Virus genome (UHGV): UHGV-1637942
From: a virus
DNA: 15,511 bases
Strand: one strand, 5' to 3'
The notes beneath the pieces are model-generated. The model searched no databases. It was not told the DNA's origin and saw only the letters and a program-made list of their open reading frames with translations. The position numbers were made by a program, and so were the translations under genes. Shown piece after piece: positions 1-15,504 of this stretch. Every line of letters starts with the position of its first letter. The stretch's first letter is position 1.

Positions 1-2337
1 AATATTGCTACTGGCGGCTATCCAGTACAGCGCCGTACCAAGATAACGCGCGCTGGTTTCAACCTGCCTGATATCGATAATCCGCTTTTCCGAGAACCAG
101 AACTCAAACTGCACCGTCGGGTCATATACAGCCAGTTTCGGGACCGCTGTTATCTGAAAATACCCTGGTATCAGTTCAATAGTGACAGGCGCTGCCGGTG
201 CCGCAATCCGGAACGATACCGATGCCGGATCGCCCTGCTGCCCCCACGCATTTACCGCCCGGACCGTCAGCGTGTAACGCCCCAGCGCCAGTTGCCTGAA
301 GCGGTATGTGGTTTCCGTCGTCCGGGCCATGCTGACCAGCCGCTCACTGCCGTCGTCCGCTGCCACGGTAAGGCGAAGCAGGAAGCTCACGCCCTTCACC
401 ACCTTCGGCGTGTCCCATCGCGCCAGCACCTGATATTCCCCGCTGTCTGCGGTGACTTCGGCGGTCAGGTGCTGCACCGCTGGCGGCGTGACACCATTCA
501 CCGTGCCGCTCTGGTCGCCGTCAAAGTGCGCCCCGTTATCCACGATGGCTTCTTTTTCCGGTACATGCTGCACGGCGGTGATGGCATACGTACCGTCATC
601 GTTCTCCCGGATACTCACACAGCGGAACAGGCGCTGGCGCAGCGTCGGCAGCTTCAGCCCCCACACGCTGTATTCGGCAACGCCGTCAGGAACCCGGCTC
701 ACTTTCACCTTCACGCCGTCGGTGACGGACTGAACCTCCACGCTCACCGGATTACCCTGCCCGTCAACCAGGCTTATCAGCGTGGTGCCGGAGGATGGCA
801 GCGTGATTTCACGGTCGAGCGTCAGCGTCCGGGTCTGGCTGTTCACCGCCAGCACACGACCACCGGTGCTGATACCGGCATAGTCATCATCACAGATTTC
901 AATGACATCGCCCGGTACATGGCGAAGCCCTTCTGCGCCCACGCTGAAGTCCACGGTCTGCGTTTCCAGCAGTTCCGTTTTAATCAGCCACAGCCCGGCG
1001 CGGTGTGCCTGCCCCCGGCTGGTACAGCCAAAGGCATCCATCTTCGTGACGTTACGACCGTAACGGGCAATGGCCTGCGTATCTTCAACAAGCTCTGTCG
1101 CCGTCTCCCAGCCGTTGTTCGGGTCAATCCAGTTCACCTCAACGGCATTATGGCGGTCCTTCAGGGCGCTGAAGCTGTAGCGGAACGGCGCGCCATCATC
1201 CGGCATCACCACATTACTGCGGTTATAGGTCCACACCTTATCTGATGGTCGGTCCTGCACGAACGTCAGCGTCTGCCCGTTCCATACCGGCATACAGCGC
1301 ATCGCCGAGCAGAAATCACTGAGAACATCCCACGCCTTACGCTGTTGTGCCAGGTACGCATTAAAGGTCATCCGCGGCTCGGTCCCCCCGAAACCATCCG
1401 GGACCGTCTGGTCGCAGTACTGCCCGATGGCATACAGCGCCCACTTGTCCACATCCGCCGCCCCCAGACGTTTTCCCATGCCGTAGCGCGGGTGAGTCAG
1501 CATGTCCCACAGACACCAGGCCGGATTGTTGCTGTATGCCGGTTTCAGACTGCCGTCCCAGATACCACTGTACGTGCGTTTTTCCGGGTCATAGTTTGAC
1601 GGCACCTGGATGATGCGACCGCGGATATGGTAGTTCACCGTCATCTGCTGGCCGCCGAACTGCTCCGCATCCACCTGCAGCCCCACAATGGCCGTGTTCG
1701 GGTAGCACTGTTTCACATCGATGATTTCGGTGTATGACGACCACAGCGTCTTATTCTGCAGCTGGTCCGTGGTGCTGTCCGCCGTCTCCCTGACCATCCG
1801 GATGTTAAAGGGCCGGGGAGGCAGATTATCCAGAATCACCGAGGCCAGGAACTGCGAGGTGGTCTTGCCGTTAATGGTGACATCCTTTTCCGTCACCCAG
1901 CGGCCATTACGCTGTAACTGAATCAGAATCCGGACAGAGGAAGGATTACGGTCGCCCTTTGACGTGGTCTGCACCAGTGACTGCACCCCGAAGGTAACCC
2001 GCAGGCGGTCAATGTTCGCGGACGTAATGGTGCGCGTCACCGGTTTTGCCTTCGTCACTTCCACGCCCAGTCCGGTTTCAGCTCCGGAGGACTCAAAGCC
2101 TTCCGGTGGTGTCTGCTCCTGCTCCCCGGCACGCCAGACCGCGGTCACACCGTGTATCACGGGATTACCGTCCGTGTCCGTCAGCGGGGTTTTGTTCACC
2201 AGAATACTCTGCAGTCCCTTCACCGGACCTTCTATCGGTCCCTCACCAATCGCATCAATCACACTCATCATCTGCGTGGATTTGAGATTATCCTTCGCCT
2301 CACGAGGCGTGTGTGCCTTACCGCCACCTTTTCCCAT
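1..2337 (-). CDS. J: Tail tip attachment / host-specificity protein J (central tail fibre), N-terminal 779 codons; the 3' end lies beyond position 1
   Basis: Minus-strand frame is open from ATG (plus-strand CAT at 2335-2337) to the window edge; it is absent from the ORF track because no stop falls inside the window. My translation starts [39 protein letters not shown] and ends [16 protein letters not shown] at position 1, recognisable as lambda gpJ. SD-like GGGGAAGG lies 6-8 nt upstream. Confidence 0.9.
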
Positions 2338-2443
2338 ACAGCCTTCCCCTGAATAAATTAACCGCCACTTGCCATTCCGTACAGAAGTCGGATATCCTTC
2401 GCCCGAAAAGCATGAAACACATTTCTGCCATGCTAAAGAGAAA

Positions 2444-2475
2444 CCCCGGTATCAGCAGATACCGGGGTTTTCTTT
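2444..2475. terminator. Perfect 10-bp inverted repeat CCCCGGTATC / GATACCGGGG with a 4-nt loop, flanked by an A-run upstream and TTTTCTTTC downstream; candidate bidirectional intrinsic terminator or protein-binding palindrome
   Basis: Read directly: aaaCCCCGGTATCagcaGATACCGGGGttttctttc (stem 2444-2453 / 2458-2467). The complementary strand has the same hairpin followed by TTTCTCTTT. Confidence 0.45.
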
Positions 2476-2542
2476 CATGCCCACCGATAATCCTGTTGGT
2501 TAAAACCGGTAATGGCATAAAAATTCTGAATATCTTCACATT

Positions 2543-2570
2543 TTCACACACTGACTGTGGCGCGTATAAT
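2543..2570 (+). promoter_or_regulatory. Sigma70-like promoter on the plus strand: -35 TTCACA (2543-2548), 16-nt spacer, -10 TATAAT (2565-2570), with an AT-rich upstream tract
   Basis: Read directly: atcttcacatTTTCACAcactgactgtggcgcgTATAATttctctgcg. Perfect -10 consensus, 5/6 match at -35, spacer 16 nt. Points away from J and towards the 3' end of I, antisense to the late operon. Confidence 0.5.
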
Positions 2571-2576
2571 TTCTCT

Positions 2577-2680
2577 GCGTTAATTTTTTTGTCGTGATAT
2601 AAGAATAATTCCTTACACTTAATCTTCGTAACTCTCCCGCAGTTCCTGTCCGCGATCACTGCGGGATTTTTTTATTCTTT
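2577..2680 (+). ncRNA. Candidate small non-coding RNA of about 100 nt, antisense to the I-J intercistronic region of the late operon; family unknown
   Basis: Bracketed by the promoter (TSS predicted near 2577) and the intrinsic terminator at 2635-2680. No ATG-initiated ORF in any plus-strand frame in this interval. Contains a C/U-rich stretch (CCUUACACUUAAUCUUCGUAACUCUCCC) before the terminator hairpin. Confidence 0.4.
2635..2680 (+). terminator. Rho-independent terminator on the plus strand: 9-bp stem TCCCGCAGT / ACTGCGGGA, 14-nt loop, then TTTTTTTATTCTTT
   Basis: Read directly: TCCCGCAGTtcctgtccgcgatcACTGCGGGAtttttttattcttt. Lies immediately 3' of the I stop codon on the opposite strand (convergent). 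Confidence 0.55.
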
Positions 2681-3361
2681 TTACCCCTGCCGCCCGATAA
2701 CCACGACCTTTCCGCCCCCGCCTTCATCACGGGTGCTGATGTCCTGGGATATACGGCGGGAGCCAACCAGCATTTCCCCGTAAGGCACCGGCATCGGGTT
2801 CCCCTGGGCAATCATGTTATCCAGCGAGGAAAAGTACGTGTTCTGTCTGCCGTTATCCGTTGCGCGGTAATCCGGTGTTTTTGCCTTCGGGGCCAGCATC
2901 TGGGCCACTCCGCCCAGTATCATGCTGGCACCCAGTGAAAACAGCATCGTGGTGGCAGAAAAACTACCGGCACTCAGGGCTGTACCCCATAACGCCATCG
3001 AGCCTCCGGCCGTGAAGAAAGAGCCCACGATGGCTGCCGCCCCCAGCACAATCTGCAGTCCACCCTTTCCGGCCCCGGCCAGTCGCGGCACAATGTGGAT
3101 GACCGTTCCCTCACCCAGCTGTTCGTGAAGACGGGCGTACACCGCCTCCGGTGCCGTGTCATAACCGGCAATACGTATCTGGTACCAGCCTTCGTTCATC
3201 TGACGGCGAAAGCCCGGCATCTGCATCGACAGGGCGCGAATGGCTTCCGCTGCCGTGTTCACATACAGGCTGAGGCGGCGGCCAAATCGTTGTAAATCCC
3301 CGTGAAGGCAGATGCGTGCCAGTGGCGGTGACGCCAGACTGAATGCGTTCGTCGTTGCCAT
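2681..3361 (-). CDS. I: Tail tip assembly protein I
   Basis: ORF of 226 aa, MATTNAFSLASPPLARICLHGDLQRFGRR...GKVVVIGRQG, recognisable as lambda gpI. ATG at 3359-3361. Its 5' end overlaps the 3' end of K by about 100 nt in another frame, as in lambda. Confidence 0.93.
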   Translation of the reverse strand: MATTNAFSLASPPLARICLHGDLQRFGRRLSLYVNTAAEAIRALSMQMPGFRRQMNEGWYQIRIAGYDTAPEAVYARLHEQLGEGTVIHIVPRLAGAGKGGLQIVLGAAAIVGSFFTAGGSMALWGTALSAGSFSATTMLFSLGASMILGGVAQMLAPKAKTPDYRATDNGRQNTYFSSLDNMIAQGNPMPVPYGEMLVGSRRISQDISTRDEGGGGKVVVIGRQG

Positions 3362-10906: not shown

Positions 10907-10938
10907 GTGAAAAAAGACACGGGGGCATTTCGCCCCCG
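10907..10938 (-). terminator. Intrinsic-terminator-like hairpin between E and FI: 7-bp GC stem (CGGGGGC / GCCCCCG), 5-nt loop, then TTTTTT on the minus strand
   Basis: Minus strand reads TAA(E stop)tccgtgagCGGGGGCgaaatGCCCCCGtgtcTTTTTTcacagggggctgatATG(FI). Plus-strand coordinates: stem 10920-10938, A-run 10910-10915. Confidence 0.5.
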
Positions 10939-10946
10939 CTCACGGA

Positions 10947-11975
10947 TTATTTCACCTGTACCACCACAAACTCATCCGGGTCCGGCAACACCATCAGCGG
11001 CGCGGACTGCGTCATGGTAAATTCACGGGCGGGATCCCCTACCGTCAGCCAGTGTTTCGGATAACGGGAAGAGGCCACCACACCTTCGGACAACGCCTGA
11101 GCATCCTGAATGGCACCGTAACAACGGATCCCATCTGCAGCAGTATTCCCCAGAACCAGCATGCCATCTGGAAGATAACGTTTTTCGATACCGTCTTCTG
11201 CTATATAAGACATTTTCGCCACCACAATGGCCAGATCGCCGTAATACCCCTTGAAGGACACCACTGCGCCCAGATCTTTCACTGCCGTTTCGAGTTGAGA
11301 ATTTGAACCGCGACGGGTATCCAGTTTTTCGCGGAACAGCTTAAAACCATTCAGAAGACGCCAGACGGTACCGTCCATAATGGCAATATTCACAAGACCG
11401 CTGGCCTGGTCGCAGTAGAGGTCAATATCATGTGTAGGATCGAACGTGTCACGATCCTGTTTTGACCACTCCTTACCACTACCCTGAGTGATGTTATTCT
11501 TCGTCGACCTGCCAAAATCGACCTCAATTTTCTCGAACTGGTCTCCTTCCATGGTGTATTTGCCATACAACACAGCATTTACCGCCTGCATTTCTTCCAC
11601 CTGGACAATCGCGTGCTCTTCCTGTTTGAGGTTATCGGTAATGATACGCAGACGGCGGTAAGCCGGATCATTCAGTTGAGATGGATCTTCACCAGGAAGG
11701 CGCTCAACCGCCTGCTGGTAATTAAATTCGTGTTTCGGCTTGACGTAGCCCGGACGCAACACGCGGGTTTCACCACCACGATGACGCAGCACTTTTCCTT
11801 CAACAACCGGGGAGACATAGGCCGCCACCGGCGTTTTTCCGGTAATTTTGTCCAGCATCACCTCTTCGGTGTGGAAATTCACCGTACGGCGGAAAAACAG
11901 CTCCAGAAATAGCGCACGGAATTTAACTTTTTGTTCGGTATAACCGAGTAACTGGCGGGTCGTAAACAATCCCAT
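10947..11975 (-). CDS. E: Major capsid protein E
   Basis: ORF of 342 aa, MGLFTTRQLLGYTEQKVKFRALFLELFFRRTVNFHTEEV...DPDEFVVVQVK, recognisable as lambda gpE. ATG at 11973-11975 with SD AGGA 8 nt upstream. Confidence 0.93.
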   Translation of the reverse strand: MGLFTTRQLLGYTEQKVKFRALFLELFFRRTVNFHTEEVMLDKITGKTPVAAYVSPVVEGKVLRHRGGETRVLRPGYVKPKHEFNYQQAVERLPGEDPSQLNDPAYRRLRIITDNLKQEEHAIVQVEEMQAVNAVLYGKYTMEGDQFEKIEVDFGRSTKNNITQGSGKEWSKQDRDTFDPTHDIDLYCDQASGLVNIAIMDGTVWRLLNGFKLFREKLDTRRGSNSQLETAVKDLGAVVSFKGYYGDLAIVVAKMSYIAEDGIEKRYLPDGMLVLGNTAADGIRCYGAIQDAQALSEGVVASSRYPKHWLTVGDPAREFTMTQSAPLMVLPDPDEFVVVQVK

Positions 11976-12003: not shown

Positions 12004-12025
12004 TCAGGCCAGCGCGGTGGCCTGA
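12004..12025 (-). other. Intercistronic RNA hairpin between D and E: 8-bp stem TCAGGCCA / TGGCCTGA with a 6-nt loop
   Basis: Read directly on the plus strand, TCAGGCCAgcgcggTGGCCTGA, lying between the D stop (12033) and the E SD/ATG. The minus-strand RNA has only a short, interrupted U-tract after it (cugauuucug). Confidence 0.4.
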
Positions 12026-13922: not shown

Positions 13923-15504
13923 GTGGTGTTGTCTCCTCTTCCGGCCTACGACTCTCCGCTATCTGCTGCTGATACGCCTGCGCTATCCACACCGGACGTG
14001 AGAGTCCGGCTTTTTCCCGCTCTGCAGATTCCCTGACCTGCTGGCGGAAAATGTCCTGATAATCCTCGCCCATCAGCGCCAGCTCTTTCTCATACGTGCT
14101 CAGTCCGGCCTCAATGCGCATCACTGATTCCTGAACCTCCTTGAGCCCGTCAATGGCCATTCTTCCGGCTCCAATCCACTCAGCCCGTGACCAGGCTGAT
14201 CGCGCCTGATAAAAATCAAAACGCGCCCGTGGCGGACGAATAATCCCCCGAAGAAGTGCCTCTTCCAGCCAGCAGGAAAACATCTGCGTGGCCAGCCGGG
14301 CCGCAATAAATTTTCGCCGCCCCATAAAATAGCGCCACGACTCATTGGCGGATGCGCGGGCACTTGAATAACTGACCTTCGAGTAATCACGGGACAACTG
14401 TTCGTAGGAAACGCCAAGACCGGCGGCGATATACCGCAGCAGCGCCTGTTCAAGCGCAGAAAATCCATTGTCTGAATCCTGCGCAGTCTGTAGTTTCAGA
14501 TCATCACCAGGGAAAAGGTGCGGAATTTTGACACCGCCCAGTGTCACGTTATTCGTGTCATACCAGCTGGAAAACTTCTCCAGAATATTAATAAGCGGAT
14601 TATCCTTCTGCTCCTGTGGCGCGCCGGCGATATATTCAAAGGCCTTTTCGGTATCAAGGTCACTTTCAATCGTCGCTGCATACATCGCCTTCACTATGGC
14701 CGACTGAAGCTGTGTTGCCTGCAGGGAATCGAGCATCTTCAGCCGTTCCATGACGCTGTAAAACTGATTAGCCCCACGGGTCTGCCCGTCCTCCACCGGC
14801 TCGAAAATATGCAACATGGCCGGACGCCCGGTGGGAAGTTCACGCGGGATCCGTTCCCATCGTCCACTACCAGAGAACGGAAAATCATCCTCACAGATAT
14901 GGTACGCGACGGCACGGCCATATCGATCGACCTCCACACCGGCCCGCAGAAAAGGGTTCCCCATACCGTGTCCAGGCGTGTCCACCCGTTTCGGACTCAC
15001 GGCTTTAAAACGCGTACGGAATAACTGCGTGGTTTCCGTATCCCAGACCGGCTGCACAAAGATTTCGCCGTTAAACGCATGAACGCCCACACCTTCACGG
15101 ATAAATTCCGTGAACGTGCGTTTTCCTTCCACGTCGATCTCGCCAAACATCCCTTCGGCGTATTCCGACCAGGCCGCCTCCACCTCATCGACAAAGCTTT
15201 TTGCTGCGGTCTCCCGCATCCCCAGCCAGCGCCAGTTCGGACGGTAGCTGATCAGAAACATATGCCCGACAATGTGATCCTTATGCAGAGCCACCGCATT
15301 AGCCGCTATTCCGTTATTGCGCACCAGATCATCTGCCCGGGCATTCCCCAGACGCAACGCGGGCAGCAGGGCCGCATCGGCACTCTGCGCCGGTGGCAAC
15401 CACTCCGCCATTTGCCCGCCAAATCCTGCGCCGCCCCCGTTGTAGCTGAGGCTCTCCCGAAGCGGAACGCCGTTCACATCAATCAGGACAGGCGTTCGTT
15501 TCAT
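13912..15504 (-). CDS. B: Portal protein B
   Basis: ORF of 530 aa, MKRTPVLIDVNGVPLRESLSYNGGGAGFGGQMAEWLPP...EPVEDGQTRGANQFYSVMERLKMLDSLQATQLQSAIVKAMYAATIESDLD...GRMAIDGLKEVQESVMRIEAGLSTYEKE..., recognisable as lambda gpB. ATG at 15502-15504, 7 nt from the window edge; W and terminase would lie beyond it. Confidence 0.95.
   Translation of the reverse strand: MKRTPVLIDVNGVPLRESLSYNGGGAGFGGQMAEWLPPAQSADAALLPALRLGNARADDLVRNNGIAANAVALHKDHIVGHMFLISYRPNWRWLGMRETAAKSFVDEVEAAWSEYAEGMFGEIDVEGKRTFTEFIREGVGVHAFNGEIFVQPVWDTETTQLFRTRFKAVSPKRVDTPGHGMGNPFLRAGVEVDRYGRAVAYHICEDDFPFSGSGRWERIPRELPTGRPAMLHIFEPVEDGQTRGANQFYSVMERLKMLDSLQATQLQSAIVKAMYAATIESDLDTEKAFEYIAGAPQEQKDNPLINILEKFSSWYDTNNVTLGGVKIPHLFPGDDLKLQTAQDSDNGFSALEQALLRYIAAGLGVSYEQLSRDYSKVSYSSARASANESWRYFMGRRKFIAARLATQMFSCWLEEALLRGIIRPPRARFDFYQARSAWSRAEWIGAGRMAIDGLKEVQESVMRIEAGLSTYEKELALMGEDYQDIFRQQVRESAEREKAGLSRPVWIAQAYQQQIAESRRPEEETTPRET

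Follow-up and report, generated by a model that had tools for sequence, protein, structure and literature searches.

Bidirectional intrinsic terminators of Escherichia coli combine an A-tract, a GC stem and a U-tract, and classically lie between convergent genes. Hairpins followed by a U-run in the late sense are also present between the homologues of the tail genes I and J in lambda, 569R4, mEp235, T1 and a set of prophages whose junctions we refer to as type B (E2348/69 PP6, Sakai Sp11, Sp14 and Sp15, and Stx1a and Stx2c phages). T1, itself virulent and non-lambdoid, has CCCGC-CUUGC-GCGGG followed by U8 at its ST34/ST33 (I-like/J-like) junction (NC_005833, 24972-24994), and the depositors of the record annotated a 'rho-independent transcriptional termination site' between these genes. 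In lambda (NC_001416, ~15465-15484), the I-J gap holds AAACCGCC-UGCG-GGCGGUUU and then UGUCAUUU, ~20 nt before the J ATG; searching the literature for an earlier account of a terminator at the lambda I-J junction gave nothing relevant. The mEp235 junction has GGCCACC-UUCG-GGUGGCU and then UUUUUA, and the type-B hairpin of E2348/69 PP6, Sakai Sp11 and the Stx1a and Stx2c phages reads CAGGCA[C/U]C...G[G/A]UGCCUG and then UUGUUUUU. Morons, promoter-gene-terminator cassettes that form self-contained units expressed in the lysogen and bounded by intrinsic terminators, have been described in the late operons of lambdoid prophages, in the form of pairs of convergent sRNAs past PR' in EHEC (PMC4104026). 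What Q does at PR'/tR' of such prophages is reviewed in PMC7547250, which also provides Term-seq and dRNA-seq data for Sakai (GSE143631; aligned to NC_002695.1).

Here we analyse a hairpin in a 15,511-nt stretch of UHGV virus genome UHGV-1637942, called the window throughout, with positions counted from its first letter (Table 1). The hairpin lies inside a 343-nt gap between I and J, both on the minus strand within the late operon, as the preliminary description had placed it. J was identified through the gpJ annotation of identical DNA in RefSeq and GenBank together with tblastn, which gave J homologues in 1664 phage records, and its leader carries a Shine-Dalgarno-like AGGGGAAGG 4-12 nt ahead of the ATG. 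The window shares with lambda the gene order, a Q-antiterminated late operon and a late-sense GC hairpin with A and U tracts ahead of the J ribosome-binding site, but the lambda gap is 60 nt long, its stem is shorter (5 G-C plus 3 A-U pairs), its hairpin stands ~20 rather than 106 nt from the ATG, and no PasB gene separates it from I. T1 likewise has a GC stem and then a U-run in the tail-gene sense at the corresponding junction, whereas its sequence is unrelated, its U8 is on one side only and its 77-nt gap contains no sRNA gene.

Table 1. Features of the I-J junction in the window and the corresponding hairpin in Sakai
Feature	Position	Strand	Details
Tail-tip / host-specificity gene J, 5' part	1-2337	-	ATG 2337-2335; runs past the left end of the window
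J leader, type-A module	2338-2443	-	106 nt, from hairpin to J ATG
Putative sigma-70 promoter	2369-2398	+	TTGCCA-18 nt-TATCCT, 9/12; predicted start ~G2405; consensus match only
AAAGAGAAA (plus-strand reading)	2435-2443		UUUCUCUUU on minus; U-rich tract for late-sense transcripts entering J
Hairpin core	2444-2467		Stems 2444-2453 / 2458-2467; 10 perfect pairs, 6 G-C at base
Hairpin loop	2454-2457		AGCA on plus, UGCU on minus
TTTTCTTTC	2468-2476	+	U-rich tract for stopping plus-strand (PasB-sense) transcripts
Second, imperfect hairpin	2478-2521	-	Directly upstream of the terminator in the late sense
PasB promoter	2543-2570	+	TTCACA-16 nt-TATAAT, 11/12 consensus; kept across PasB alleles
Putative divergent promoter	2566-2595	-	ACGACA-18 nt-AATTAT, 8/12; predicted start ~2559; consensus match only
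PasB sRNA	2577-2673	+	Predicted start ~2577; published E2348/69 5' end maps to ~2592
PasB 3' end (U7 run)	2667-2673	+	After terminator hairpin 2649-2665
Tail assembly gene I	2681-3361	-	ORF and annotation of identical or near-identical DNA
Sakai prophage Sp12 hairpin	NC_002695.2 2217497-2217520		~2217358-2217381 in NC_002695.1

Sequence reading and a pattern search confirmed the perfect 10-bp inverted repeat CCCCGGTATC-AGCA-GATACCGGGG with its flanking tracts at 2444-2467, so that the previously given span of 2441-2475 covers the element and part of its flanks. Adding the flanking A/T pairs extends it to a 13-bp perfect repeat around the 4-nt loop (2441-2453 / 2458-2470), and no other of the 67 short-range inverted repeats in the window makes a perfect hairpin-type repeat of this length. 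The distance to J, earlier put at 105 nt, was right within one base, but the element is not the perfect 24-bp palindrome it was taken for, because the AGCA loop is not self-complementary; what stands there is an inverted repeat whose arms, 10+10 (or 13+13), enclose a spacer of 4 nt.

The 24-nt stem-loop alone has a predicted dG of -18.5 kcal/mol as plus-strand and -19.1 kcal/mol as minus-strand RNA, and in a 66-nt context the values are -28.7 and -32.2 kcal/mol, with z-scores of -5.5 and -5.8 and none of 200 shuffles folding equally well. Seven of the nine nucleotides after the stem are U on each strand, the minus-strand tract UUUCUCUUU being more interrupted than the plus-strand UUUUCUUUC. 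With a terminator score of the d'Aubenton-Carafa type, the plus strand reaches d = +32.9 (tail score 4.15) and the minus strand d = +22.3 (tail score 3.43), compared with +30 both for the terminator of PasB itself and for a trp-type control. The bidirectional terminator signature reported earlier is thus borne out, in that a GC-rich stem, a 4-nt loop, an adjoining U-rich tract and a positive d occur on both strands, and the element lies outside coding sequence between transcription units. A simple terminator scan of the window did not list it, apparently because greedy stem extension took in the A/T tracts. The second hairpin beside it is more stable on the minus strand (-14.7 against -11.6 kcal/mol), where it includes three G-U pairs that would be C-A mismatches on the plus strand. 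Elsewhere in the late operon, the sense strand carries further terminator-like hairpins, for example at 10919-10939 directly after the capsid gene; such hairpins within the late operon fit with reading by an antiterminated polymerase.

Two GenBank phage records have an ORF called straight over this probable terminator, and the products called across the hairpin are a 'hypothetical protein' of 66 aa and a 'tail fiber protein' of 77 aa. We rejected a coding reading because the ORFs crossing the hairpin have no Pfam or PHROG support, natural single-base indels at 2440 and 2468 would shift their frames, and RefSeq annotates no gene in the module at 2340-2516.

The gap is not the plain late-operon spacer that it had been taken for. 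PasB, a published Hfq-dependent sRNA gene with a near-consensus promoter, takes up the I-proximal half of it, running on the plus strand in antisense orientation to the late operon, and the whole gap is a 343-nt insertion-prone junction. PasB was placed by alignment to the E2348/69 locus and through the coordinates and Northern probe in Table S6 of PMC8550237; the reverse complement of this probe matches window positions 2650-2669. The hairpin falls outside the mapped PasB transcript, stops ~75-76 nt short of the -35 element of PasB, and is separated from I by late mRNA to which PasB is perfectly complementary. PasB is absent from Rfam 15, and no Rfam family reached its gathering score anywhere in the window, with generic terminator-shaped matches only at E-values up to 10. 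As a lysogen-expressed unit between late genes with intrinsic terminators as bounds, PasB resembles a moron, although the described morons lie at the PR' region rather than at the I-J junction, and the hairpin stands upstream of the moron promoter, not at the moron 3' end. It likewise has the symmetric stem of the bidirectional E. coli terminators, A-rich on one side and T-rich on the other, so that both strands give a hairpin and a U-run, but its flanks are a J leader and the PasB promoter, which point away from it. Any transcripts stopped here would therefore be read-through or short unannotated RNAs.

The type-B junctions are the closest relatives of this arrangement, with I, an antisense PasB, the PasB promoter, a hairpin, a J leader and J in the same order, and with the hairpin starting, as in the window, shortly past a conserved TTCAGAAnTTTTAT block upstream of the promoter. 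Their hairpin nevertheless differs in sequence and has a U-run on the late-sense strand only, their J leaders measure 35-55 nt, and they have neither the second hairpin nor the plus-strand promoter-like site. The type-B hairpin scores +12 to +25 as a terminator in the late sense and -43 in the opposite one, and it is kept although at least four different J leaders come after it. Because the type-A hairpin, that of the window, never varies, covariation was examined on this analogue, in which one stem pair covaries (C-G in 7, U-A in 7, U-G in 1 and unpaired in 1); sliding the partner columns lowers the share of paired alignment cells from 97.9% to 35-43%, and 4 of 500 shuffles matched the covariation score. 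Such a hairpin is common at I-J junctions without being universal: in ES18 the gap measures 9 nt and has none, and a sodC-carrying junction has no late-sense terminator directly ahead of J. As lambda, T1 and mEp235 have the hairpin without PasB, it appears to be older than the PasB insertion.

On this basis, we consider the hairpin to be probably a two-way intrinsic terminator, the local version of an I-J terminator that is frequent in siphoviruses with lambda-type tail tips. The late-sense action ahead of J put forward in the preliminary description gains strength, by analogy, from the hairpins at the same position in lambda, mEp235, T1 and the type-B prophages; our inferences are termination itself, its override by Q and the strand on which it is most important. 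On the minus strand, the nascent RNA would form a GC-based stem of 10-13 bp and then UUUCUCUUU, and polymerase without the Q modification would be released 106 nt ahead of the J start codon. In the lysogen, this would keep stray late-sense transcription from J. Such transcription could arise by divergent initiation at the adjoining strong PasB promoter; the sole candidate late-sense start in the gap is an 8/12 promoter match, and the source of transcription in the lysogen is hypothetical. During lytic growth, Q-modified polymerase would be expected to read through with mild attenuation at most. On the plus strand, the stem and UUUUCUUUC would halt transcripts from the J side heading to the PasB promoter, and the hairpin would thereby bound the antisense-oriented PasB insertion on its upstream side. 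Either this role or that of a short-RNA end, given the putative promoter at 2369-2398, describes the plus strand better than the earlier proposal that it stops antisense transcripts leaving J.

The distribution of the hairpin follows that of the module around it. Among 5,426 complete E. coli genomes, a 40-mer with the hairpin occurs only where the 177-nt I-J module occurs (1445 versus 1446 genomes, the latter being 27% of the set), at a median of one copy per module-bearing genome; the 3382 places found for the 40-mer are 2 x 1691, because the palindrome matches both strands. The module (2340-2516) is nearly invariant, with at least 99% identity in 1442 of the 1451 E. coli records that match it. 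None of the ~43 type-A loci that we gathered through the J protein, without selecting on the hairpin, has a broken stem. A single copy among 108 has an altered plus-strand U-tract (2468-2476), which lacks 1 nt, and the minus-strand tract (2435-2443) is polymorphic in ~10 of 108, including Sakai Sp12, where the left flank is AAAGAAAA, giving UUUUCUUU. The lower polymorphism of the plus-strand tract could mean that the plus-strand function is more constrained, and the conservation of the type-A hairpin may in part reflect recent spread. A REP-like dispersed repeat, which the preliminary description had named as a finding that would speak against its reading, was looked for and rejected: the E. 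coli copies are confined to the I-J module, and no second copy was found in the window with three mismatches allowed. The identical 10-bp stem does recur in a few IMG/VR contigs and in 58 genome stretches of the GTDB scan, nearly all of which belong to unrelated taxa, yet with different loops and flanks, which identifies these matches as convergent rather than as copies; E. albertii aside, the scan of GTDB species representatives returned unrelated and convergent matches only. No paper turned up when the full text of the literature was searched with the hairpin sequence, written as DNA and as RNA, for both strands.

The hairpin might also be the 3' end of an unannotated sRNA, either a plus-strand RNA of ~70 nt or a minus-strand RNA of ~120 nt, so that I-J would encode a two-sRNA cassette, a possibility that we hold only tentatively. 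In the first form, which is compatible with a two-way terminator and which we regard as doubtful, the hairpin would mainly terminate an RNA spanning ~2405-2475, which would lie in tandem with PasB and run antisense to the J leader. The candidate promoter has the critical -11A and -7T with a purine 7-8 nt downstream, and from the density of matches in a scan of the whole window we estimate the chance of a 9/12 match within ~60 nt of the right place at ~1-3%, whereas AT-rich intergenic DNA is full of chance promoter matches. The predicted RNA would have a typical sRNA layout, with a 5' hairpin (2409-2434), then an A-rich (ARN-like) AAAGAGAAA linker and lastly a strong terminator followed by a U tail, folding at -31.9 kcal/mol with a z-score of -7.3, and its U-tract is the less polymorphic side of the hairpin. 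However, that tail, UUUUCUUUC, is interrupted, and an interrupted U tail is suboptimal for Hfq binding. Rfam gave no family match for the region, and the type-B, lambda, T1 and mEp235 junctions lack the plus-strand U-tract and promoter, which would make the ~70-nt RNA a type-A novelty. Plus-strand RNA-seq signal over the gap in Sakai (candidate XECs209, RPKM ~60-106) agrees with such an RNA, but PasB alone could account for it. The Sakai Hfq-CRAC data list PasB homologues in Sp11, Sp14 and Sp15 and no EcOnc peak in the Sp12 I-J gap (PMC4104026, Table S2), and this absence from the peak list is weak evidence against an sRNA.

In the second form, which we judge unlikely, the hairpin would end a ~120-nt minus-strand RNA begun divergently at the PasB promoter (~2559), which could be a second sRNA or by-product transcription that has to be kept out of J. 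The divergent start is proposed because TATAAT plus T is nearly symmetric: the -10 element of the candidate mirrors the PasB TATAAT, and no other minus-strand sequence within 2300-2720 matches at 8/12 or more. The predicted RNA would contain the second hairpin, with its minus-favouring G-U pairs, an A-rich linker and the terminator (-44.6 kcal/mol, z-score -6.1), and both PasB-linked junction types retain a late-sense terminator directly past the promoter region. Against this, the promoter matches at only 8 of 12 positions and, on our reading of the alignment, its -35 is not conserved in other PasB alleles. Lambda, mEp235 and T1 have an I-J terminator without a PasB promoter, which argues that the hairpin needs no divergent RNA, and such an RNA is absent from the Sakai EcOnc peaks and from the available parts of the EPEC RIL-seq tables, which contain no I-J intergenic RNA besides PasB. 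AgvB, AsxR and HnrS (EcOnc10-12) were considered as identities for the region and rejected, because they map to the PR' / late-gene region ~17 kb off. EcOnc22-24 fall not on the type-B hairpin but on PasB homologues, once the offset of 139-142 nt between NC_002695.1 and NC_002695.2 is corrected.

That the hairpin is instead a non-terminating intercistronic mRNA element seems to us improbable. Its role would then be to guard the upstream K-I segment against 3' exonucleases or, once PasB has paired with the late mRNA and RNase III has cut the duplex, to cover the 5' end of the resulting J fragment. In favour of such a role, the stem is stable and intercistronic within a long polycistronic mRNA, PasB is perfectly complementary to the late mRNA, and the hairpin is widespread in phages including T1. 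To our knowledge, T1 has no Q-type antitermination, so that complete termination at this site would harm the phage. However, all analogues keep the U-tract directly past the stem, a feature that defines a terminator and that a stabiliser does not need, and stabilisation and partial termination are compatible with one another.

A site acting at the DNA level, whether an operator for a dimeric protein, as had been suggested, or a recombination or insertion junction, is highly improbable: the dyad symmetry is perfect over 10+10 bp, the hairpin lies at the edge of a junction that swaps cassettes (PasB, sodC, different J leaders), and one contig has an IS element inserted 22 nt from it, but the hairpins of related phages are unrelated in sequence and yet keep pairing and U-run, with a compensatory change, which points to a function at the RNA level, no regulator gene lies among the neighbouring tail genes, there is a single copy per prophage with no second half-site in the window at three mismatches allowed, and the cassette boundaries (~2516-2520 and the J ATG) differ from the hairpin position.

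Taken alone, the hairpin that we read as a two-way terminator is a routine one, and its value lies in its context. It separates two types of junction, type A, carried by the 1446 module-bearing complete E. coli genomes, and type B, represented by E2348/69, and for studies of PasB it sets the upstream boundary of the cassette. Were one of the candidate small RNAs to prove real, a widespread prophage sRNA would be added to the accessory regulome of E. coli, with Sakai Sp12 among the carriers. More broadly, the I-J junction of lambdoid prophages emerges as a structured insertion site, occupied mostly by PasB and sometimes by sodC, in which an apparently older I-J terminator has been retained.

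The inverted repeat CCCCGGTATC-AGCA-GATACCGGGG, which the preliminary description had placed 105 nt upstream of the tail gene J, was located by sequence reading and a pattern search of the window at 2444-2467. Its stem lies 106 nt from the J start codon, as this codon begins at 2337 on the minus strand. Calling it a perfect 24-bp palindrome slightly overstates its symmetry, because the loop is not self-complementary. Counting neighbouring A/T pairs, the repeat extends to 13 perfectly paired bp around a 4-nt loop, and of the 67 short-range inverted repeats in the window it is the longest perfect one of hairpin type. The folding energy is -28.7 kcal/mol on the plus strand (z -5.5) and -32.2 kcal/mol on the minus strand (z -5.8), and none of 200 shuffles folded as well on either strand. 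The stem is followed by UUUCUCUUU in minus-strand RNA and by UUUUCUUUC in plus-strand RNA, and a d'Aubenton-Carafa-type terminator score reached +22 and +33, respectively, next to +30 for the terminator of the neighbouring PasB gene and a trp-type control. With a U-tract and a positive score on both strands, sequence and comparison support the proposed bidirectional intrinsic terminator. The PasB cassette and the conserved I-J terminator that form its context had been overlooked.

The window is a lambdoid late region read from the minus strand, with a gap of 343 nt (2338-2680) between genes I and J. The plus-strand promoter and terminator unit in the I-proximal half of this gap is the published Hfq-dependent small RNA (sRNA) PasB, reported on the opposite strand between the I and J homologues of EPEC E2348/69 prophage PP6 (Pearl Mizrahi et al. 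2021, Table S6, PMC8550237); the reverse complement of the Northern probe from that table matches window 2650-2669. The start expected from the promoter (~2577) is ~15 nt upstream of the equivalent of the published 5' end (~2592), which was derived from read coverage (PMC8550237). Neither RefSeq nor the phage records annotate PasB, and Rfam 15 has no entry for it. The hairpin lies outside PasB, ending 76 nt upstream of its -35 element.

Features of the I-J junction and related loci (window coordinates unless a locus is named)
Feature	Position	Strand	Details
Left flank of hairpin, AAAGAGAAA	2435-2443		sequence read
Right flank of hairpin, TTTTCTTTC	2468-2476		sequence read
Gene I	2681-3361	minus	ORF and annotation of identical DNA
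Gene J	from 2337, past the window's left end	minus	ORF and annotation of identical DNA
PasB sRNA gene	2543-2673	plus	own promoter and terminator; antisense to late operon
PasB promoter, TTCACA-16-TATAAT	2543-2570	plus	near-consensus; I-proximal half of gap
PasB terminator	2649-2665	plus	then U7; I-proximal half of gap
Putative promoter TTGCCA-18-TATCCT	2369-2398	plus	predicted start ~2405
Putative promoter ACGACA-18-AATTAT		minus	predicted start ~2559
EcOnc/PasB homologue site, Sakai NC_002695.2	L205 834-893 (Sp11); matching places in L206 (Sp14) and L207 (Sp15)		
gp9c, 'hypothetical protein', phage ASU11	L001 1489-1689		ORF through hairpin
URC09475.1, 'tail fiber protein', phage vB_EcoS-569R3	L002 1489-1722		ORF through hairpin

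No homologue of PasB in EHEC is given in Table S6 (PMC8550237). EcOnc22, EcOnc23 and EcOnc24, ~85-nt Hfq-bound sRNAs of Sakai Sp15, Sp14 and Sp11 that are destabilised without hfq (Tree et al. 2014, PMC4104026), appear to be PasB homologues, because their coordinates land on PasB homologues after correction for the shift of 139-142 nt from NC_002695.1 to NC_002695.2, which was taken from the XECs209 ORF and stx2B/AsxR.

PasB itself occurs as two main alleles, window-type and ASU11/Sakai-Sp12-type (window 2549-2700 compared with L001 and L209), which diverge by ~10-15% over the interval that begins in the -10 region and includes the 3' end of gene I. The adjoining hairpin module, in contrast, reaches at least 99% identity, which suggests recombination with a boundary at about 2549-2564. 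Among IMG/VR contigs, one (L012, ~4960, equivalent to window 2489) carries an IS element 22 nt right of the hairpin, parting the PasB promoter from the hairpin and the J leader. Four others (L183, L189, L190 and L197) have a markedly different sequence (...ctgtaacgcccgggaatgatatctgccacgggggcgtacag...) where PasB would have its -10 region and 5' portion, upstream of a hairpin of the E2348/69 PP6-like type; these junctions may hold another sRNA allele or different cargo with the same -35 and upstream block.

Loci gathered through the J protein, without selection on the hairpin, show several I-J junction types, of which type A is that of the window. Type B (E2348/69 PP6, Sakai Sp11, Sp14 and Sp15, and Stx1a and Stx2c phages) shares PasB and its promoter but has a different hairpin, CAGGCA[C/U]C...G[G/A]UGCCUG, ~12 nt after the PasB promoter, followed by UUGUUUUU on the late-sense (minus) strand only, and a J leader of 35-55 nt. 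This hairpin and its U-run are constant although at least four different J leaders come after them; 97.9% of cells are paired versus 35-43% with partner columns slid, one covarying stem pair is C-G in 7, U-A in 7, U-G in 1 and unpaired in 1, and the terminator score is +12 to +25 for the late-sense strand and -43 for the antisense strand. Lambda lacks PasB, and its 60-nt gap holds the late-sense hairpin AAACCGCC-UGCG-GGCGGUUU, then UGUCAUUU, ~20 nt before the J ATG. The mEp235 junction carries GGCCACC-UUCG-GGUGGCU, then UUUUUA, and phage T1 has CCCGC-CUUGC-GCGGG, then U8, between I-like and J-like genes, annotated by its depositors as a rho-independent terminator. ES18 has an I-J gap of only 9 nt, and a third E. 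coli junction type, with an antisense sodC, has no such hairpin directly before J. Judged from this comparison of junction sequences, which carries the most weight in the analysis, a late-sense I-J terminator hairpin is frequent, not universal, and older than the insertion of PasB, which lies in the interval from the I stop codon to the hairpin. We conclude that the element is most likely a bidirectional intrinsic terminator, that its ancestral, shared role concerns late-sense transcription before it reaches J, and that type A gained an additional good U-tract in the sense of PasB.

In some related prophages, as in IMG/VR contig L147 (668-1500, late-sense orientation), the junction holds a sodC-like gene in antisense orientation, for a Cu,Zn superoxide dismutase whose signal peptide is of lipoprotein type, together with a remnant resembling PasB and another strong hairpin of different sequence, AGGTAAGGGGCGGGCCCCTTACCT. 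Cargo thus seems to have been inserted repeatedly at the I-J junction.

Of 5426 complete E. coli genomes, 1446 carry the 177-nt J-proximal module containing the hairpin (2340-2516), with identity of at least 99% in nearly every carrier and no RefSeq feature annotated inside it; the module was also found in 13 phage records and O157:H7 Sakai prophage Sp12. All homologous copies in IMG/VR adjoin PasB, except the one broken by the IS element. The identical 10-bp stem, joined to different loop and flanking sequences, occurs in a few unrelated viral contigs and 58 genome stretches of a GTDB scan, almost all from unrelated taxa; the E. albertii copy alone is homologous, and the others are convergent GC hairpins rather than copies. 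In six unrelated IMG/VR contigs (L064, L066, L068, L088, L100 and L101) the stem CCCCGGTATC...GATACCGGGG has an AAAC/GTTT loop and lies ~35 nt after a TATACT -10-like box, before a T-run and near other terminator hairpins, which looks like a small transcription unit making convergent use of the stem.

Compatible with termination, the hairpin could also end a small RNA of its own, as two promoter-like sites, found by consensus match, are in position to feed it in a lysogen. A predicted ~70-nt plus-strand RNA would open with a stem-loop at its 5' end and continue through an A-rich linker into the terminator, closing with a U tail; a predicted ~120-nt minus-strand RNA would start from a site whose AATTAT is the mirror partner of the PasB -10, and would contain a further hairpin at 2478-2521, with G-U pairs that favour that strand. 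The Sakai Hfq-CRAC table has no peak in the Sp12 I-J gap, and plus-strand RNA-seq signal over the gap (candidate XECs209) is inseparable from PasB. We regard such an unannotated RNA as rather unlikely. The suggested dimeric protein-binding site was rejected, as the analogues preserve pairing, not sequence. In two GenBank phage records, annotated ORFs span the hairpin and overlap the J start; they are probably spurious, given the lack of Pfam or PHROG support, natural single-base indels at 2440 and 2468 that shift their frame, and the absence of RefSeq annotation. A known RNA family was likewise rejected, as no Rfam family matches. A REP-like dispersed repeat, named in the preliminary description as grounds for refutation, is excluded by a 40-mer around the hairpin that is confined to the E. 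coli genomes bearing the module, and the terminator claim withstands this check.

In a lysogen, the terminator would stop unmodified polymerase before J, and during lytic growth Q-modified polymerase would pass it. Q passage at late-operon terminators is established lambda biology (summarised in PMC7547250); here we infer it, because Q lies outside the window. Terminator-like sense-strand hairpins elsewhere in the late operon are consistent with such read-through. Strong examples on the minus strand at 10919-10939 and 12004-12025 flank the major capsid gene (10947-11975), one of them (GCGGGGGCGAAATGCCCCCGT, then GTCTTTTTTC) directly after its stop codon, and may be further internal terminators or stabilisers. 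The hairpin belongs to a familiar class of elements and is unremarkable in itself; the sole reading to raise its interest would be a small RNA, as yet unannotated, with its end at the hairpin.
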